Shown piece by piece: positions 58,301 through 64,000 of a stretch of 64,000 nucleotides of DNA. Location: assembly GCA_963833095.1 (NCBI GenBank), contig CAWHWQ010000004.1, positions 206,702 to 270,701 of the forward strand, read 5' to 3'. Made by a program: the position numbers. Source of the DNA: Vulcanimicrobiota bacterium. GTDB lineage: Bacteria > Vulcanimicrobiota > Vulcanimicrobiia > Vulcanimicrobiales > Vulcanimicrobiaceae. Within the stretch, counting starts at the first letter, position 1; every line of letters begins with the position of its first letter.

Positions 58301-61300
58301 CGCTGGGGTTGATTCTGAAAACCTTTTTCGGCAAAGAACTGCTGCTCGCGAGCGGTAAAGGCGAACTGGTTCCCACAGTCCTTGCACGTGATCATCTTGT
58401 CTTCCACAGGGTCGGAGCCTCCGGAGCTAATCTACCGTTAAGGCCTGGTAAAGTGCTACTTTGGTAAGCGCGCTCCCTCCCAGGACAGAGCGATTCCCCA
58501 GCTCTTCTTCGCTCTCTGTCACCCTGAGGTGCGAAGCCTCGAAGGGTCTTAAAGTGATGATCCCATGGGTGCCCACGGTGGTCGTCGGCGACCGATTGCC
58601 GGCCAATCCGCAGTTGCTCGATCAGTCCGGCCGCGCGCTTCGCTGGAGCCAACTGAACGGTCGGGCCTTTGCCGTGACCTTCATCTACACGCGCTGCCGC
58701 GAGAGCGCCGAGTGCCCCGCGACATCGGCCAAGTTCGCACGGCTTCAGCACGAGATTCCCAGCAACGCGCGCCTGCTCGAGGTGACCATCGATCCGAGCT
58801 ACGATCGCCCCTCCGTCCTGCGTCGCTACGGTGCAATGTTCGGCGCCGATCCGGCTCGCTGGACGCTCGCCACCGGCGATCCGCAGACAGTGCTCACGCT
58901 CGCGAAGCGATTCAACGTGATCGTTTCACCCGGGCCGCGCGCGGGCCGGCTGGAACACGGCGAGGCGATCGCCGTGTTCGATACGCAAGAACGGCTCGTG
59001 TCTCTCACCGCCGGCAACAGCTGGCAGCCGCGTGAAATTCTCGCCGAATTGCAAACCGCGAGTGGCATGCGCGGCGGTTTGCTCGATCGATTCACGCTGT
59101 GGTTTCGCAATTTCGGGATTGCGTGCGGCGCCGTGCTGACCGTCGGCGATCGATTGTCGCGTCCGCTCGCTGGCCTGATTCTGGTCGCGCTGCTTGTCCT
59201 GATCGTGGGCGCGTCTGCCGTGCTGCTGCGCGGGCTGCGCGGGGTTTAGGCGAATCGCGTCACGATTTCCGCCAACCCGAACAGGATCATCGGCGCCCCG
59301 ATGACCGCAATGTCGCGTGGCGGCTTTATAGGGCGTGCTCTCTGCGCCATACGAGGAATCCGCGGCCGAGTCGTTCGCCCTGTCCCGGCATCGTTTGCTC
59401 GGCGCTGGTAATCCGGAGCTCATCCCCGTCGATTTCGAAGTAGCGAACCTGTTTCGTCCCGAGCCAACTCGGATGCCACGACAGATCAACGTCGGTGACA
59501 AACCGATTCCCTTCGGTCGTGAAGTGACCCGAGTACGCAGCCACACCGCCGAACAGTCTGGCCGGATCGTCGGCAGCCGTTCGCTGCGTATCGGTAAGGA
59601 GCGCGATCACGCGGTTTCCGGGCAAGAAGGCGATAAGTCCGGCCGGAGCAGCTCCCATCAGGTCCGCCGTTTCACCGGTGTCTGAAAATCGCTGCTTGCA
59701 CTCCACCAAGCGCCAAAGGCCCAAGAGTGGCTCCATCGGTGTTACGAGCGAAAGCCTGCGCGCGGAAGTTTACTCGGAATGTTGACCAGCGTAGCTGCAG
59801 CAATCGCCGCTTCGTAGCCTTTATCGCCGCGCGCCGGATCGGCACGCTCTTGCGCTTGCGCGAGATTCTCGGTGGTGAGCACGCCAAAGCCGATCGGCAC
59901 CGCAGTCGCTAGCTGCACCTCCATGATGCCGCGCGCACATTCGCCCGCCACGAAATCAAAATGCGGCGTCTCGCCGCGAATCACGACTCCAAGGGCAACG
60001 ATCGCGTCGTAGCGATCGGCTTCGATCAGCTTACGGCACGCAAGCGGCAATTCGAAACAGCCCGGAACTTCGACCACGTCGATCTCGTCGCGCTCGACCC
60101 CGCAATCGGCGAGCGCACGCTGCGCGCCGTCGATCATCCAGTCGGTCAAGTCGCGATAAAAGCGTGCGGCAACGATCGCAAAGCGGCGGCCCGCGCATTG
60201 CGGCGCAGGTACGCGCTTGCCGTTGCCCTCGCGCGGTTTCACGACGCGACGGTTTCGTCGAACATGTGGCCCAGCTTAGCGCGTTTGGTGGCCATGTATT
60301 TCTTGTTGTGCACGGTCGGCGCGGTTTGCATCGAGACCCGGCCGACGATCTTGATCCCATAGCCTTCCAGGCCGAAGATCTTGCGCGGGTTGTTGGTAAT
60401 GAGGCGCAATTCTTTGATGCCGAGGTCGGCGAGGATCTGCGAACCGATGCCGTAGTCGCGCTTGTCAACGGGCAGGCCTAGCGCGAGGTTGGCCTCGACC
60501 GTGTCCGCGCCATGATCTTGCAACTCGTAGGCGCGCAACTTGTTGGCTAGACCAATACCACGGCCTTCTTGACGCAAATACAGGAAGACACCGCGCCCTT
60601 CTTTGGCGATCATTTCCATCGCACCGTCGCGCTGCGCGGCGCAATCGCAGCGAATCGAGTGCAGTGCATCACCGGTCAAACATTCGGAGTGCACGCGAAC
60701 GAGCACGTCTTTCCCGCTGCTGATGTCGCCCATGATCAAGGCAACGTGGGTGTTTCCATCGATGGTCGTTTCGTACGCGACGCCCTTCCAGTCTCCGGTG
60801 GTGGTCGGCAGGTTGAATTCGGCGACGCGTTTGACAAGTTTTTCGGTACGCATACGGTACGCAATGAGATCCTTCACGGTGATGAGCCGAAGATTGTGTC
60901 GATCGGCATACACCCGTAACCCGTCGAGACGTTCCATCGTTCCGTCCTCGGCCATGATTTCGCAGATCACTCCTGCGGGATAGAGTCCGGCCATGCGCGC
61001 GAGATCGACCGATGCCTCGGTTTGCCCCGCACGCACCAGGACGCCGCCCGCTCGCGCGCGCAGCGGAAAGGTGTGACCCGGTCGCAAGAAATCCGCTGGC
61101 ACGGCGTCGGGGTCGAGCAGCTTCTTGACTGTCGCCGCGCGATCGTGCGCCGAAATTCCCGTCGTCGTGACACCACGCGCTTCGACCGAAACGGTGAACG
61201 CCGTTTCGTGCACGGCGGTATTGTCGCGAACCATTTGCGGAATCTGCAAATCGTCCAAGCGCGATCCCAGCAGCGGAACGCAAATCAATCCGCCGGCTTC

Positions 61301-64000
61301 TTTGCGCATGAAGTTGATCGCGTCGGGCGTGATCTTCTCCGCGGCCATCACCAGATCGCCTTCGTTTTCGCGATCCTCGTCATCGAGTACGACCACCATT
61401 TTGCCGGCGCGAATATCCTCGAGCGCATCCGGGATCGTATCGAAGGGCGAAGCGCGTTCGGCGGGCGCGGGAGCCAACTCGGGCAGCACGGCGGTCAAGC
61501 GCTGCAAGGTCCGGTAGGACGGCTCACGGCGTCCGGCCCGCAAAAGGGACACCGCCGACTCGGTTACTCCCGCCTTGAGCGCAAGCTCGGAGGCCGAGAG
61601 ACCGGCGGCCTCAAGTGCGGCGTTGAGGTTCGCGGCAAATTCGCTCATAGGACCTCAACCCTATGCCCGGACTTGACAAATGTCAAGATGATATATCTGA
61701 CTCACCTTAGGGAAAGTGCTCGGGTCTGCTCTCCGAGGCGGGCGACAACCCTACTGGGCGGCGAAAAGGGGCAGGGGTGGAAATAATGAACGCTCGCCCG
61801 CATCGGACGAAACCGCAATGGTCGTAGGTCCGGGTTTGATGATCTGTCTGAGCTTAGGTGTGATCGCGGGCGGGACCTACAATCCTTCGCCGCCAGCGTT
61901 CGCCGCTGGTATGCACAATGGTGGTGGTGGCCGCTTATTTCCGTCCTAAGCCTGTTGACGCTGCCGGGCGGAATATTTCTCGGCTACTTTCCTCCCGCAC
62001 ATGAGTCTGGCTTTCGGGGCGGCTGTGCCGTGGTATTTTGTGACTAAAAGAGCAAAAAAAAGCGCGACTACCATCACATAATATTCAGGCCGATGAAACT
62101 TACCGGCATATTGCACAACAGCGTGATAGAGCTCGAACGGCGGTAAAGGTTATTTAAGCCTTAAAACAAAAAGGAGCGCGATGGGGCTACGCCGAGAGTT
62201 TGAAACTGCCGTTCCGAAACAAGTCTTTGACGCAATGAAAACAGGTCGGGGAGAATGCCGAAAAAACGCGCGGCGAGGCGCTGAATGAAAAAATGCGGCA
62301 GTGAATAAGAAGTGGGCGATGGTCGTTCATAACATTGATTAGCTACTATCGCTATAGTTGACTTGCTGCCAAGTCTTGATTGGAAGTCCTCAAGAGGGAT
62401 GGAGGCGCGCGAGCCATCGAAACGTGAATTCGAGCGGAGACCCTGTTACAGACTTCATGGTGATGCAGGACGCTAACGAAAAAGACTTTTAGCACAATAC
62501 GTCCGCAGATCATTAAAGTTATGCGTGAACTACAATTTAACCATGGCCTCTATAACTACGCGCTTAGTGATACCAAGATCGGAAGCATCGTTAACGACCC
62601 GATAATAGAGTTGCCGAGATGATGGCTGGCTTTGGTGACCCTCGGATTTATACGCTACTCGCGAAGCATAATCGCCGAGTCCGCGATAGTGGCATGTCCC
62701 GAAGCGAGCTTACGTGCTGCAGAGCGCGAAGAACCAGCGCTAAGAATGCAAGGAGACAACAATAAAGGGCGAGGACGCCATGAAGCGCTTCGAGGACTTT
62801 CCTCTTTGGGTCGGCGTAATCCGCGCTGGGGAAAAAGGAAGGGGCCGAAGAGGTCAGAGAAGTCATTGAAGATGCCATCCCGAACCTACGGAGAAACCCG
62901 AGGCCGATGAATAGGTCCGCGCTGGTTAATCCGCAGTTCGGCGTTCGTGCAACGCAGCGCCATCATACGTCAAGCGGCTGTCCATCCGTACCCTTGAGGA
63001 CCGTTGCGAAGCGCCCAGCGTCGTCTCTTCCCTCGCGAGCGTTGAACCGGAACACCTGCTCGTCAACGTAGGCGTCAAGATGGAACGGAACGCGGTGCAA
63101 ATGTACGTCCCGTGAAGCGTGCGCTTGAAGCAGCCCCAGAAGTTCTCAATCGTGTTGGTATGCACGTCGGCCTTCGCAGTACGTCACCCAATGGTCGATG
63201 AAGGCGTGCGCGTAGCCAATGTCGGGAAGCCCGCGATACGGTCCCCATCGCATCGGTGTAGATCGTCGCGTTCGGAAACACGTTTGGCGCGAATATGCGG
63301 TAAACAGCGTCGAACGCTTGCGATCAGGCTATAACCATCGCTTTGAACTTTGGCACTGGCTGCGTCCCTTCGTTGCGGCCATGCCGAGTACCATCGTCTT
63401 GCCCTCGAACGGATACACGCTCTTTACGGTTCTGGTACTTGTTACGGCCAAGCCCATCGTTGGCGATGTTTGCGAGCACCGACGAAGGTTTCGTCAACTT
63501 CAACTTCGCCCTCGAACTTTGTGGGCTCCACCATCGCGCATCGCTTCACGAACGCGGTGCAGCATGAACCACGCCGTCTTTTGCGTTACGCCGAGCGCCC
63601 GCGCAAGTTCGTGCGAGGACGTTCCGTTCTTGGTGTTCGCCAGGAGCCAAAGAGCCGGGAGCCATTGCCAAAACGAGATCGGGCTCTTCCTCAAAGATCG
63701 TCCCGGTCTTAGCCGAGAAACACGCGCTTGCAATCTTTGCAGCGCCAGGTCTTGCGGGTCGAGGATGAACTGCACGGCAGCCGAGCCGCAACCCATCCGG
63801 GGGCACGCAACCGCGTGCGGCCAGCGGACCTTAACGAAGTGGGCCCAGGCCCGCTCGGGGTCCGAGAAGTAGGTCACGGCTTCGAGGAGGGTCGTCGGCT
63901 GCTTGTCCATACCCTGAGCATGTACTCGCCCGGTGACACCTGGGTGGCATCAGAAGGTGAGTCAGGTATATCATCCGGACAAATGTCAAGATGATATATC

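Follow-up and report, generated by a model that had tools for sequence, protein, structure and literature searches.

The ribBA locus

The genes and features at the locus are collected in Table 1. They lie in a 64-kb window.

Table 1 Features of the ribBA region, in window positions
Feature	Position	Strand	Basis
ribBA, 469 aa, XRE-HTH + DHBP synthase + GTP cyclohydrolase II	60239..61648	-	ORF, Pfam
XRE/Cro-C1-type helix-turn-helix, N-terminal, residues 1-57	61478..61648	-	HTH_3, AF2, Foldseek
Linker, variable, residues 58-68	61445..61477	-	pLDDT, alignment, dN
DHBP synthase (RibB) domain, residues 74-264	60857..61429	-	Pfam PF00926, E 2.4e-85
GTP cyclohydrolase II (RibA) domain, residues 274-438	60335..60829	-	Pfam PF00925, E 1.3e-70
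ribH (lumazine synthase)	59742..60242	-	Pfam DMRL_synthase, E 4.9e-53; ORF coordinates
Candidate operator, palindrome cTTGACA-tt-TGTCAAg = cTTGACAttTGTCAAg	61672..61687	-	Sequence
-35 hexamer TTGACA, left half-site of the candidate operator	61681..61686	-	Sequence, geometry
-10-like hexamer TAGGGT, 17 nt past the -35 and 9 nt ahead of the ATG	61658..61663	-	Promoter geometry
Decayed IS1595-like element adjoining the operator; upstream DNA of the window copy, not part of the regulator	61688..63975	.	Inverted repeat, Pfam remnants
Second operator-like copy, degenerate, CGGACAAATGTCAAG, at the far IS end	63976..63990	.	Sequence, inverted repeat

The ribH gene was located downstream of ribBA with a 4-nt overlap, and the two genes are probably co-transcribed; ribD, ribE, and ribF were found elsewhere in the genome. 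A second ribBA copy on contig C5, which had been reported in the genome-wide survey's note, was confirmed at C5:23295-24701, and its protein was 99% identical. This copy sat in a 23-kb block syntenic to the window's contig. The nucleotide identity of the block was only 85 to 89%; in a bin such as this one (80.7% complete, 3.1% contamination), the block probably stems from either another, related population or a segmental duplication. RibBA and its near-identical copy were the only RibB/RibA homologues of the genome. As the sole RibB/RibA in a genome that also carries ribD, ribE, ribH, and ribF, HTH-RibBA is predicted to be enzymatically active.

RibBA carries an N-terminal helix-turn-helix domain

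The survey's note had claimed that an XRE-type helix-turn-helix (HTH) was fused to the N terminus of RibBA and that this arrangement occurred in nearly all of the genomes of the order that it compared. Both claims held. Residues 10-55 of the 469-aa ORF matched HTH_3 (PF01381; E 6.7e-8, 32.9 bits versus a cut-off of 23), and the HTH was present at the RibBA N terminus in 59 of the 61 genomes of the order. In the case of the remaining two genomes, the gene was cut by a contig end (G003) or the HTH was absent (G027). The protein search with residues 1-80 was also reproduced, yielding 262 matches, the best 120 of which were listed. In 59 genomes, one stop-free ORF joined the catalytic and the predicted DNA-binding parts, and the start codon was fixed relative to the promoter.

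Both catalytic domains were full length (PF00926 positions 2-191 of 191 and PF00925 positions 2-164 of 165), and Mycobacterium tuberculosis RibBA (4I14, residues 4-404) aligned end to end with residues 69-462 (E 2.3e-137). The DDEDRENEGD block (D89-D98) and residues C323, C334, and C336 of the GTP cyclohydrolase II domain were invariant across 30 homologues and aligned to the same residues in 4I14; we take them to be the acidic active-site loop and the Cys triad of GTP cyclohydrolase II, respectively.

The AF2 model of residues 1-66 (pLDDT 91.4) was a four-helix bundle (helices at 3-15, 19-26, 30-37, and 45-54) with a helix 2-turn-helix 3 motif. This is the fold of XRE repressors bound to DNA: Foldseek matched it to the SinR DNA-binding domain (3qq6; TM 0.76, rmsd 0.9 Å over 54 columns), and further fold matches were C.BclI, C.AhdI, HigA, 434 Cro, P22 c2, DdrO, and HppE (1zz6). 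The HTH is under purifying selection (dN/dS ~0.27, with dS saturated) and its recognition helix was conserved in the alignment. The linker is not under such selection: it showed no conservation in the alignment, its dN was saturated, and residues 61-67 had pLDDT values below 50.

A palindrome overlaps the ribBA -35 box

A perfect inverted repeat, CTTGACA-TT-TGTCAAG, was located 23 nt ahead of the ribBA ATG, and its placement over the -35 box agreed with the survey's note (61672-61687). As a 16-bp unit, cTTGACAttTGTCAAg takes in the -35 box together with the adjoining half of the spacer. With the hexamers as the contacts, only 8 bp would separate the centers of the half-sites, which counts against the self-repression model described below.

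The palindrome was the sole match in the window, even when one mismatch was allowed; 0.10 matches were expected by chance, and at least one match occurred in 10 of 100 shuffles. Genome-wide (2.8 Mb), the motif TTGACA-NN-TGTnAA was found only at the two ribBA copies, and TTGACA itself was found 382 times. The genome has 15 TTGACN promoters of the leaderless type, and none but those of the two ribBA copies contained ..TGT.AA. Four of the five operator motif sites in five near-complete relatives were at ribBA. The genome search found no operator at ribD, ribE, or ribF.

The spacer half-site is conserved in the order

According to the survey's note, the palindrome was conserved in other genera. 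That statement rested on five upstream regions, and the note itself raised the worry that part of the conservation was promoter conservation. Since the -35 consensus makes up one half of the operator, nothing follows from the conservation of that half. In a wider comparison, which took in 59 loci of 26 genera instead of 5 loci, TTGACA-NN-TGTnAA was found in all 59 fused loci (48 matched 11 of the 11 specified bases, 10 matched 10, and 1 matched 9). The motif started 30 to 42 nt ahead of the start codon in every case and 34 to 38 nt ahead in 56 of them. Promoter spacers are normally unconstrained. Here, the right half-site carried 1.6 to 2.3 bits per position, which was equal to the -35, and the flanks carried ~0 to 0.5 bits; the symmetric flank bases c(-1) and g(+14) were conserved too.

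A TANNNT hexamer was present 16 to 18 nt past the -35 hexamer in 47 of the 59 loci, and it ended 6 to 9 nt before the start codon in 46 of these and 13 nt before it in the other. A -10-like hexamer so close to the start codon implies that the ribBA mRNA is probably leaderless or near-leaderless.

The spacer element might instead be a promoter-specific sequence, a mobile-element sequence, or a site of another regulator, with the HTH serving a structural role, binding a partner, or acting on other targets. We consider this unlikely. In its favor, the 37-nt inverted repeat of the IS1595-like element (arms at 61672-61708 and 63954-63990) includes the window palindrome inside one arm, and this element is recognizable from a Zn_ribbon_IS1595 domain in ORF 63500-63910 (-) and a DDE_Tnp_IS1595 remnant with two internal stops (window positions 63041-63409). 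Another genus has a 45-bp TIR-TIR remnant between direct repeats of TTGACAACTGT at the same place. Moreover, the genome encodes other XRE proteins (for example, at C2:195217-195405), XRE-like domains without DNA binding exist in enzymes, and HppE, which has a structural HTH, was among the fold matches. The IS end that abuts the operator in the window copy and a TATATC box that adjoins the -35 in ~17 of the 59 loci indicate that other elements share the ribBA upstream region. However, the spacer element was found in all of the fused loci, including the ~42 that lack the TATATC box, and it was unique to ribBA in the genome.

Promoters of ribBA genes without the HTH also argued against this alternative. 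In G027, the member of the family that has lost the HTH, the promoter TTGACA-17-TAGCCT-6-ATG was kept, but the right half-site was absent from it; this control is one genome on a long branch, and its position within the fused genes is not enforced by the starred branches. A relaxed operator search near the phylum's ribBA genes that lack the HTH (25 loci, 87 kb) found none. In HTH-less relatives, ribBA directly followed ribE in 17 of 19 loci, so the operon structure also differs and the presence/absence comparison is confounded.

Changes in the site itself pointed in the same direction. In G022, the site was TTAAC-N4-GTTAA, which is still symmetric but has changes in both halves and a poorer -35. 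The conserved recognition helix tended to covary with the site: residue 31 (Ser versus Ala/Gly) tracked operator base N4, with 3.6 of 5 independent pairs in the same direction and 0 in the opposite direction, although this comparison was underpowered (p ~0.125).

An alphaproteobacterial HTH-RibBA with another palindrome

HTH-RibBA proteins with a different HTH were found in the Alphaproteobacteria, namely in Anderseniella and in Aestuariivirga, of which A. litoralis KCTC 52945 is a cultured member. This HTH was only 46% identical over 39 aa to that of the order, and it matched HTH_3 at 34.8 bits in L108. All 25 loci contained the palindrome TTAG(C/T)-N3-(G/A)CTAA, mostly as TATTAGC-N3-GCTAATA, which ended 8 to 11 nt ahead of the ATG and lay over a -10-like TAATAn in a leaderless-type promoter. 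The TATTAGC-type palindrome occurred once per genome in two of the three genomes searched, and the site in the third genome was a one-base variant. In the Anderseniella-type clade, the outer palindrome bases were changed symmetrically in both halves, along with the recognition helix. A Hyphomicrobiales ribBA gene without the HTH had a normal SD leader, and the palindrome was absent from it.

Judged from its promoters and domains, this second bacterial lineage shares the architecture and has a palindrome of another sequence. That each lineage combines its own HTH with its own promoter palindrome, here in 25 of 25 loci, is a further point against a non-operator reading of the spacer element. The two fused lineages may not be fully independent because the enzyme tree did not reject a single origin (AU p 0.418).

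HTH-RibBA as a probable repressor of its own transcription unit

With its DNA-binding domain and the conserved palindrome on its promoter, this enzyme very probably switches off its own gene. We therefore think it likely that HTH-RibBA is a self-repressing enzyme-repressor of ribBA-ribH. What the data show directly is the fusion with its conservation and purifying selection, an operator-like site that is conserved and unique, the geometry of the promoter, and a second lineage built in the same way; from these we infer binding to DNA, binding as a dimer, repression, and a transcript without a leader. RibBA, the enzyme of the first committed step in riboflavin synthesis, would thus also repress the ribBA-ribH unit that encodes it. 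DHBP synthases dimerise, and the enzyme part of HTH-RibBA probably does as well. The dimer would present two XRE HTHs on flexible linkers of ~10 residues, and these would bind the 16-bp palindrome cTTGACAnnTGTnAAg. Since the left half of the palindrome is the -35 and the right half is in the spacer, the bound protein would exclude RNA polymerase and keep it off the promoter. The expected outcome is negative autoregulation, with RibBA and RibH kept at a set level. The ribBA mRNA is probably leaderless, in which case neither a riboswitch nor any other control that acts through a leader would fit in it.

Binding to the same site might also activate transcription, or it might act as a concentration-dependent dual switch like that of the controller (C) proteins of restriction-modification systems. 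C proteins have leaderless transcripts and bind to palindromes at the -35 of their own promoters, activating first and repressing later. C.BclI and C.AhdI were among the closest folds. Nevertheless, this seems very unlikely: ribBA has a single palindrome versus the double operator of the C proteins, the promoter already has a consensus TTGACA and so does not need an activator, and the alphaproteobacterial site covers the -10 region, a position typical of repression.

Metabolite sensing and the FMN riboswitch

A stronger form of the self-repression model, which takes up the trigger-enzyme reading of the survey's note, is that HTH-RibBA is a metabolite-sensing trigger enzyme in which GTP or ribulose-5-phosphate at the catalytic sites, or a flavin end product, alters DNA binding and which, through this feedback, replaces the FMN riboswitch. 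The FMN riboswitch (RF00050) is the usual control device of ribB and rib operons in Bacteria. We found none in the genome analyzed or in the 61 genomes of the order, as the note had stated, and none in the ribBA upstream DNA at E up to 1; a control search was positive in 7 of 14 reference genomes. The riboswitch was also absent in two of the three fused alphaproteobacterial genomes. These absences fit metabolite sensing, as do the regulated unit, which consists of the committed step plus ribH, and the precedent of archaeal RbkR (PMC5397151).

Other observations, however, make metabolite sensing doubtful. No ligand site besides the catalytic sites was evident, and the linker that joins the HTH to the enzyme is variable and modeled with low confidence, which speaks against a fixed allosteric interface. 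The operator is missing at ribD, ribE, and ribF. In addition, the riboswitch was found in none of the 121 genomes sampled from the phylum, although these cover families with an HTH-less RibBA as well, and in one Anderseniella genome HTH-RibBA coexists with an FMN riboswitch that lies ahead of a ribH paralogue. HTH-RibBA and the FMN riboswitch are therefore not simply complementary. The part of the earlier reading that proposed self-repression via the palindrome gained considerable support from the comparisons (59 of 59 loci, uniqueness in the genome, G027, and the second lineage); the parts that proposed riboswitch replacement, which is only partly supported, and control by a metabolite are weaker.

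Only tentatively, then, do we suggest a bacterial, protein-based, metabolite-sensing feedback on riboflavin synthesis that consists of a tethered XRE domain, a core-promoter operator, and a leaderless mRNA, is present in at least two phyla, and stands in for the FMN riboswitch. If this were true, RibBA would read its own substrate or product load, with operators of unrelated sequence that lie over the -35 in one phylum and over the -10 in the other.

Comparison with known systems

Our literature search found no paper on the HTH-RibBA fusion. The FMN riboswitch is an FMN-sensing RNA leader; in contrast, no such leader was found in the order, and the ribBA mRNA is probably leaderless.

SinR, 434 Cro/repressor, P22 c2, HigA, DdrO, and C.AhdI/C.BclI share the fold (TM 0.70 to 0.78) and the HTH_3 family with the N-terminal domain of HTH-RibBA. 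XRE/Cro-C1 repressors act as dimers on palindromes of 14 to 18 bp, which overlap core elements of the promoter. The variable residues S/A/G31 and L/Y35 correspond, in an alignment by eye, to Gln29 and Gln33 of 434 repressor, which we take to be base-contacting residues. Such repressors either stand alone as small proteins or carry a sensor or oligomerisation domain, whereas the fusion here is to an enzyme, and we know of none that is fused to a biosynthetic enzyme of the RibBA kind.

Bacterial trigger enzymes listed in PMC5397151, which cites Commichau and Stulke 2008, include BirA, NadR, and PutA. To our knowledge, none of these three acts on riboflavin synthesis. Like HTH-RibBA, they join an enzyme to a DNA-binding domain, and they repress genes of their own pathway; for HTH-RibBA, repression is predicted. 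A metabolite or substrate state controls their DNA binding, and their domains differ from those of HTH-RibBA. A trigger enzyme has its target in its own pathway, and the candidate target here is the operator-like palindrome at the enzyme's own promoter (59 of 59 and 25 of 25 loci).

HTH transcription factors that bind the promoter of a bifunctional ribA (RibBA) gene have been reported in an alphaproteobacterium, namely wBmxR1 and wBmxR2 of Wolbachia. These are separate proteins that are not fused to the enzyme, and they activate a reporter and co-regulate type IV secretion genes (PMC3518464).

Archaeal RbkR is the closest analogue of HTH-RibBA. Pfam showed DHBP_synthase, GTP_cyclohydro2, and HTH_3 in HTH-RibBA, and kinase and winged-helix domains were absent; because sequence homology to RbkR is absent, HTH-RibBA is not a member of the RbkR family. 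According to Rodionova et al. 2017 (PMC5397151), the substrate CTP stimulates DNA binding by RbkR and the product FMN suppresses it. RbkR binds palindromic operators ahead of rib genes, its own gene among them, in species that lack FMN riboswitches. As described there, RbkR is a CTP-dependent riboflavin kinase with a winged HTH that acts on many rib and transporter genes in archaea, whereas the bacterial protein studied here is a RibBA with an XRE/Cro-C1 domain and a site only at its own promoter. In both cases, a riboflavin-pathway enzyme carries an N-terminal DNA-binding domain, a palindrome is present at its own gene, and the FMN riboswitch is lacking.

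A helix-turn-helix domain precedes the enzyme domains of RibBA

The ribBA gene was a single open reading frame of 469 aa, and Pfam searches with its product identified HTH_3 (residues 10-55, E 6.7e-8, 32.9 bits with a cut-off of 23), DHBP_synthase (residues 74-264), and GTP_cyclohydro2 (residues 274-438) domains. An end-to-end alignment paired residues 69-462 with residues 4-404 of RibBA from M. tuberculosis, whose structure is solved (4I14), at E 2.3e-137, so about 68 residues are an N-terminal addition. The reading frame, the Pfam domains, and the 4I14 alignment bore out the proposal in the genome-wide survey's note that an HTH is fused N-terminally to the RibBA domains, and we widened the comparison to 59 loci. 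Among the matches listed, database names were always plain 'bifunctional DHBP synthase/GTP cyclohydrolase II', which leaves the putative regulatory domain without annotation at present.

Across 30 homologues, neither the acidic loop of DHBPS nor any of the three GCHII cysteines varied. Apart from the fused gene and its 99%-identical copy on contig C5, the genome held no RibB/RibA homologue, and ribE, ribD, and ribF were located at other places; judging by this gene content, the fused RibBA is presumably the genome's working enzyme. The ribH gene was located downstream of ribBA, with an overlap of 4 nt.

The AF2 model of residues 1-66 was confident (pLDDT 91.4). The full-length model, built from a shallow alignment of 30 close homologues (mean pLDDT 58.2), was used for the HTH and linker only. 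As modeled, the HTH superposed on the DNA-binding domain of SinR (TM 0.76, rmsd 0.9 A), as well as on those of C.BclI, C.AhdI, HigA, 434 Cro, P22 c2, and DdrO, and a PDB sequence search with the HTH returned SinR and the 434 repressor weakly (E 0.0025-0.9). The linker (residues 58-68) was variable, with low model confidence. The dN/dS ratio was about 0.27 for the HTH compared to 0.12-0.16 for the enzyme domains, with the linker unconstrained; these ratios are rough, as dS was saturated.

Features of the ribBA region of the window
Feature	Position	Strand	Remark
ribBA	60239-61648	-	HTH and RibBA domains
Palindrome over the -35 box	61687-61672	-	cTTGACAttTGTCAAg
-10-like hexamer	61663-61658	-	TAGGGT
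Window copy of the 23-kb block	~38540-61703		C4:245241-268404
Insert in the window copy	~58479-59742		~1.2 kb
SCO1/SenC gene	58461-59249	+	inside the insert
Lipocalin-like gene	59326-59736	-	inside the insert
Arms of the 37-nt inverted repeat	61672-61708 and 63954-63990		86% complementary
AT-richer DNA between the arms	61709-63953		2245 nt
Zn-ribbon ORF	63500-63910	-	decayed IS1595-family transposase
DDE remnant	63041-63409		decayed IS1595-family transposase; 2 internal stops

A conserved palindrome overlaps the -35 box of the ribBA promoter

Upstream of ribBA, on the gene strand, the palindrome cTTGACAttTGTCAAg was followed by 8 nt, TAGGGT, 9 nt, and the ATG. With one mismatch allowed, it was the sole match in the 64-kb window (0.10 expected). 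Adding the orthologous loci of 58 other genomes in the order gave a comparison set of 59 loci in 26 genera, with the C5 copy left out. The pattern TTGACA-NN-TGTnAA was located in all 59 loci (11 of the 11 specified bases in 48, 10 in 10, and 9 in 1), which extends the earlier observation of a conserved palindrome at the -35 box from 5 upstream regions.

The position of the start codon was identical in every locus, and the TTGACA hexamer began 34-38 nt before it in 56 of the 59. A TANNNT sequence was located 16-18 nt after the hexamer in 47 loci, and it ended 6-9 nt before the start codon in 46 of these (exactly 6 nt in 28) and 13 nt before it in the remaining one. This geometry, fixed across 26 genera, is as predicted for a leaderless mRNA; the ribBA promoter is thus predicted to be of the leaderless type.

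Promoter spacers are normally free to vary. In genus-weighted alignments, the right half TGTnAA, which lies in the spacer, held 1.6-2.3 bits per position and was equal to the -35 hexamer, while positions outside this half-site held about 0-0.5 bits. The symmetric flanking c and g were also kept (0.96 and 0.64 bits). Promoters in general do not carry the pattern TTGACA..TGT.AA: TTGACA occurred 382 times in the genome and was followed by ..TGT.AA solely at the two ribBA copies, and among 15 leaderless-type TTGACN promoters, only the two ribBA promoters contained ..TGT.AA. In five near-complete relatives, the pattern was found at five sites in four genomes, four at ribBA and one before a Fur-family gene; in the fifth relative, the ribBA site was one base off the pattern (L031). 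Since the motif was confined to ribBA in the genome and mostly so in its relatives, the predicted regulon is the gene's own unit only.

The site before the Fur-family gene (L084; G014:C1:630251-630264), the sole non-ribBA match to TTGACANNTGTNAA among the five relatives, was located within a leaderless-type promoter (TTGACA-18-TAAACT-6-ATG). Although riboflavin-iron links exist in other bacteria, we treated this site as a chance match.

In the recognition helix (TE[S/A/G]AIS[L/Y]LR), the two variable residues aligned by eye with Gln29 and Gln33 of the 434 repressor, which we take to be base-contacting. Operator base N4 was mostly A or C when the helix carried Ser, and T or G when it carried Ala or Gly. 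In independent pairs taken from the enzyme-part tree, 3.6 of 5 changed in the same direction and none in the opposite one (p ~0.125, not significant), and covariation of the helix with N4 is suggestive only.

Relatives lacking the HTH as natural controls

In G027, a genome of the same family, RibBA was 402 aa long and began at about the equivalent of residue 68, without an HTH. Its promoter kept TTGACA-17 nt-TAGCCT-6 nt-ATG, and the spacer (ccgtttgc) was without the right half-site. This gene was placed among the fused genes in the best enzyme tree, though well-supported branches did not force the nesting. In another genome of the comparison, G022, the site was TTAACGtcTGTTAA, a symmetric change of both halves to TTAAC-N4-GTTAA at which the -35 consensus was sacrificed.

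At 19 loci from three other families of the phylum, HTH-less RibBAs began at the equivalent of residues 44-75. In 17 of the 19, ribBA was directly after a frame with the DG(V/I)SLTV motif of riboflavin synthase (judged by eye), and these genes are, by their arrangement, putative internal operon genes without their own promoter. A relaxed operator was not found in 25 loci (87 kb) around HTH-less ribBA genes of the phylum, a comparison that is confounded by the differing operon structure.

One fragmented sister-family genome (G010) contained both a 5' fragment of an HTH-bearing ribBA (G010:C136, L063) and an HTH-less RibBA (G010:C96, L061), the latter directly 3' of a gene with an old-yellow-enzyme-like C-terminus (judged by eye). 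The two forms may reflect a strain mixture or a second paralogue.

A second lineage pairs the fused enzyme with a different palindrome

A search of 1.84 billion representatives with a profile built from residues 1-120 identified three more distant proteins with HTH_3 and DHBP_synthase domains (P0142, P0162, and P0173). Of the 80 genome loci retained for P0173 as the query, 25 aligned from residue 1-7. These were from Aestuariivirga (including the cultured A. litoralis KCTC 52945), Anderseniella, and other Hyphomicrobiales MAGs, and their proteins (424-438 aa) contained HTH_3, DHBP_synthase, and GTP_cyclohydro2 domains. The HTH was 46% identical to that of the window protein over 39 residues, with a 7-residue gap.

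All 25 loci contained TTAG(C/T)-N3-(G/A)CTAA ending 8-11 nt before the ATG. The palindrome was mostly TATTAGC-N3-GCTAATA, and cTTTAGC-N3-GCTAAAg in the Anderseniella-type clade. The outer bases shifted symmetrically in both arms, along with the recognition helix (TQGRVSQ versus S[P/A]GRISQ), even though the -10 is overlapped by one arm only. The candidate operator of A. litoralis KCTC 52945 was TATTAGCGGTGCTAATA. Most Aestuariivirga-type loci had a TTGC-type -35 located 17 nt before the TAATAn of the right arm (a by-eye reading of L108). This promoter again appears to be of the leaderless type, with the candidate operator over the spacer and -10. The 13-nt palindrome core was found once each in two of three genomes searched, with a one-base variant as the site in the third; a reversed-pattern control gave 1-2 matches per strand. 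At one HTH-less Hyphomicrobiales ribBA, which had an SD-type leader, the palindrome was not found.

The alphaproteobacterial lineage repeats the architecture, apparently under a different protein-DNA code. A single origin of both fused groups was not rejected in the enzyme tree (AU p 0.418), so our claim is divergence of the HTH/operator pair and not independent fusion in two lineages.

As for other candidates, P0142 was a partial protein from a Dehalococcoidia MAG (MSQ33999.1, named 'helix-turn-helix domain-containing protein'). Scans of genome and metagenome contigs did not find its locus as a third fused lineage, and the matches were HTH-less relatives or the Eremiobacterota type (L197, L274, and L284). 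In the case of L197, labelled Verrucomicrobiia bacterium SMAG_U14960, an Eremiobacterota-type HTH-RibBA was accompanied by a cTTGACAgtTGTAAAg operator and CTGCCCATAAAA repeats, and the contig's taxonomic label or bin is probably wrong. P0136 (520 aa) contained TetR_N (residues 2-39) and DHBP_synthase (residues 339-491) and may represent a further fusion of a regulator to RibB or else an artefact of gene calling. P0129, P0131, P0154, P0159, and P0186, which also scored high, were unrelated tandem XRE repeats.

The second ribBA copy and the upstream elements

The second ribBA copy lies in a syntenic 23-kb block that occurs twice in the bin (80.7% complete, 3.1% contamination), in the window and at C5:1565-24756, with 85-89% nucleotide identity that climbs to 95% over ribH-ribBA. 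Segmental duplication, or the presence of a second related population in the bin, is a likelier source of the block than a functional paralogue. In the window copy, an extra insert separates ribH from the next gene common to both copies.

Upstream of the window's ribBA, each arm of the inverted repeat consisted of the operator palindrome and a 21-nt terminal repeat, GATGATATA[T/C]CTGACTCACCTT, with the distal operator copy being degenerate (CGGACAAATGTCAAG). On the gene strand, the IS1595-like element was bordered by a 12-bp direct repeat of the first part of the operator, and the window's contig broke off 10 nt inside another copy of the terminal repeat. In L021 (G016, genus g4), a TIR-TIR mini-element of 45 bp that shares this terminal sequence was located at the same place, about 60 nt upstream of ribBA, between direct repeats of TTGACAACTGT. 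A TATATC(A/G)(T/C)C box adjoined the -35 in about 17 of the 59 loci (genera g1, g2, g4, g8, g24, and g26), and in L006 and L008, a small basic ORF began 9 nt past it. A mobile element may repeatedly target this operator, or the box may be a divergent extended -10 (TGnTATA) promoter.

Upstream of the C5 copy (C5:24757-25620; L091 6757-7620), there were clusters of TTATGGGCA(G/A)/TGCCCATAAA repeats and a perfect hairpin, GGGCAAAGCC-GAGTCAGAT-GGCTTTGCCC. The repeat motif was rare in the genome (13 matches, 5 of them in this region), and similar repeats were located upstream of ribBA in several genera (L009, L016, L018, L024, L033, L034, and L197).

Probable autoregulation and the FMN riboswitch

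The most likely mechanism, and one we consider probable, is negative autoregulation in which the enzyme represses ribBA-ribH through its XRE domain by promoter occlusion. That HTH-RibBA would sense a metabolite is a tentative idea, less likely than not. The fusion and palindrome reported in the survey's note were confirmed and much extended. Its further suggestion that the protein replaces an FMN riboswitch fared less well. The riboswitch (RF00050) was indeed not found in any of the 61 genomes of the order or in the 121 genomes sampled from the phylum, 90 of them high-quality, with a control detecting it in 7 of 14 reference genomes, and an Rfam search (E up to 1) of the DNA upstream of both ribBA copies gave chance-level matches only. 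However, RF00050 was not found in the phylum's families without the HTH either, so the fusion is not one-to-one with riboswitch absence. It was also not found in two Aestuariivirga genomes, but one Anderseniella genome contained it, before a lumazine-synthase paralogue. Given the HTH-less families that lack the riboswitch and an Anderseniella genome that has both, 'replacement' is a loose description at best.

The results suggest that the enzyme itself controls the committed step in a whole order of Eremiobacterota, in 59 of 61 genomes, and in the alphaproteobacterial Aestuariivirga/Anderseniella group. With the operator built into the -35 or -10 box and the transcript leaderless, this would be about the most compact regulatory unit possible, and it would provide a natural orthogonal repressor/operator pair tied to enzyme level and, suggestively, an example of operator/recognition-helix co-evolution. 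Because A. litoralis KCTC 52945 carries HTH-RibBA and is cultured, the idea is directly testable.

Bacterial riboflavin synthesis is a textbook case of riboswitch control, and to our knowledge, archaeal RbkR is the only enzyme-regulator described for the pathway. Our literature search found no paper describing a fusion of RibBA with a helix-turn-helix, and none in which a rib enzyme of Bacteria represses its own gene. In Wolbachia, HTH factors that are separate proteins bind the ribA promoter, and one of them, wBmxR1, activated a reporter (PMC3518464). BirA, NadR, and PutA are given as bacterial trigger enzymes in PMC5397151. HTH-RibBA would be a variant of this enzyme-repressor theme that is new for RibBA and for bacterial riboflavin control.
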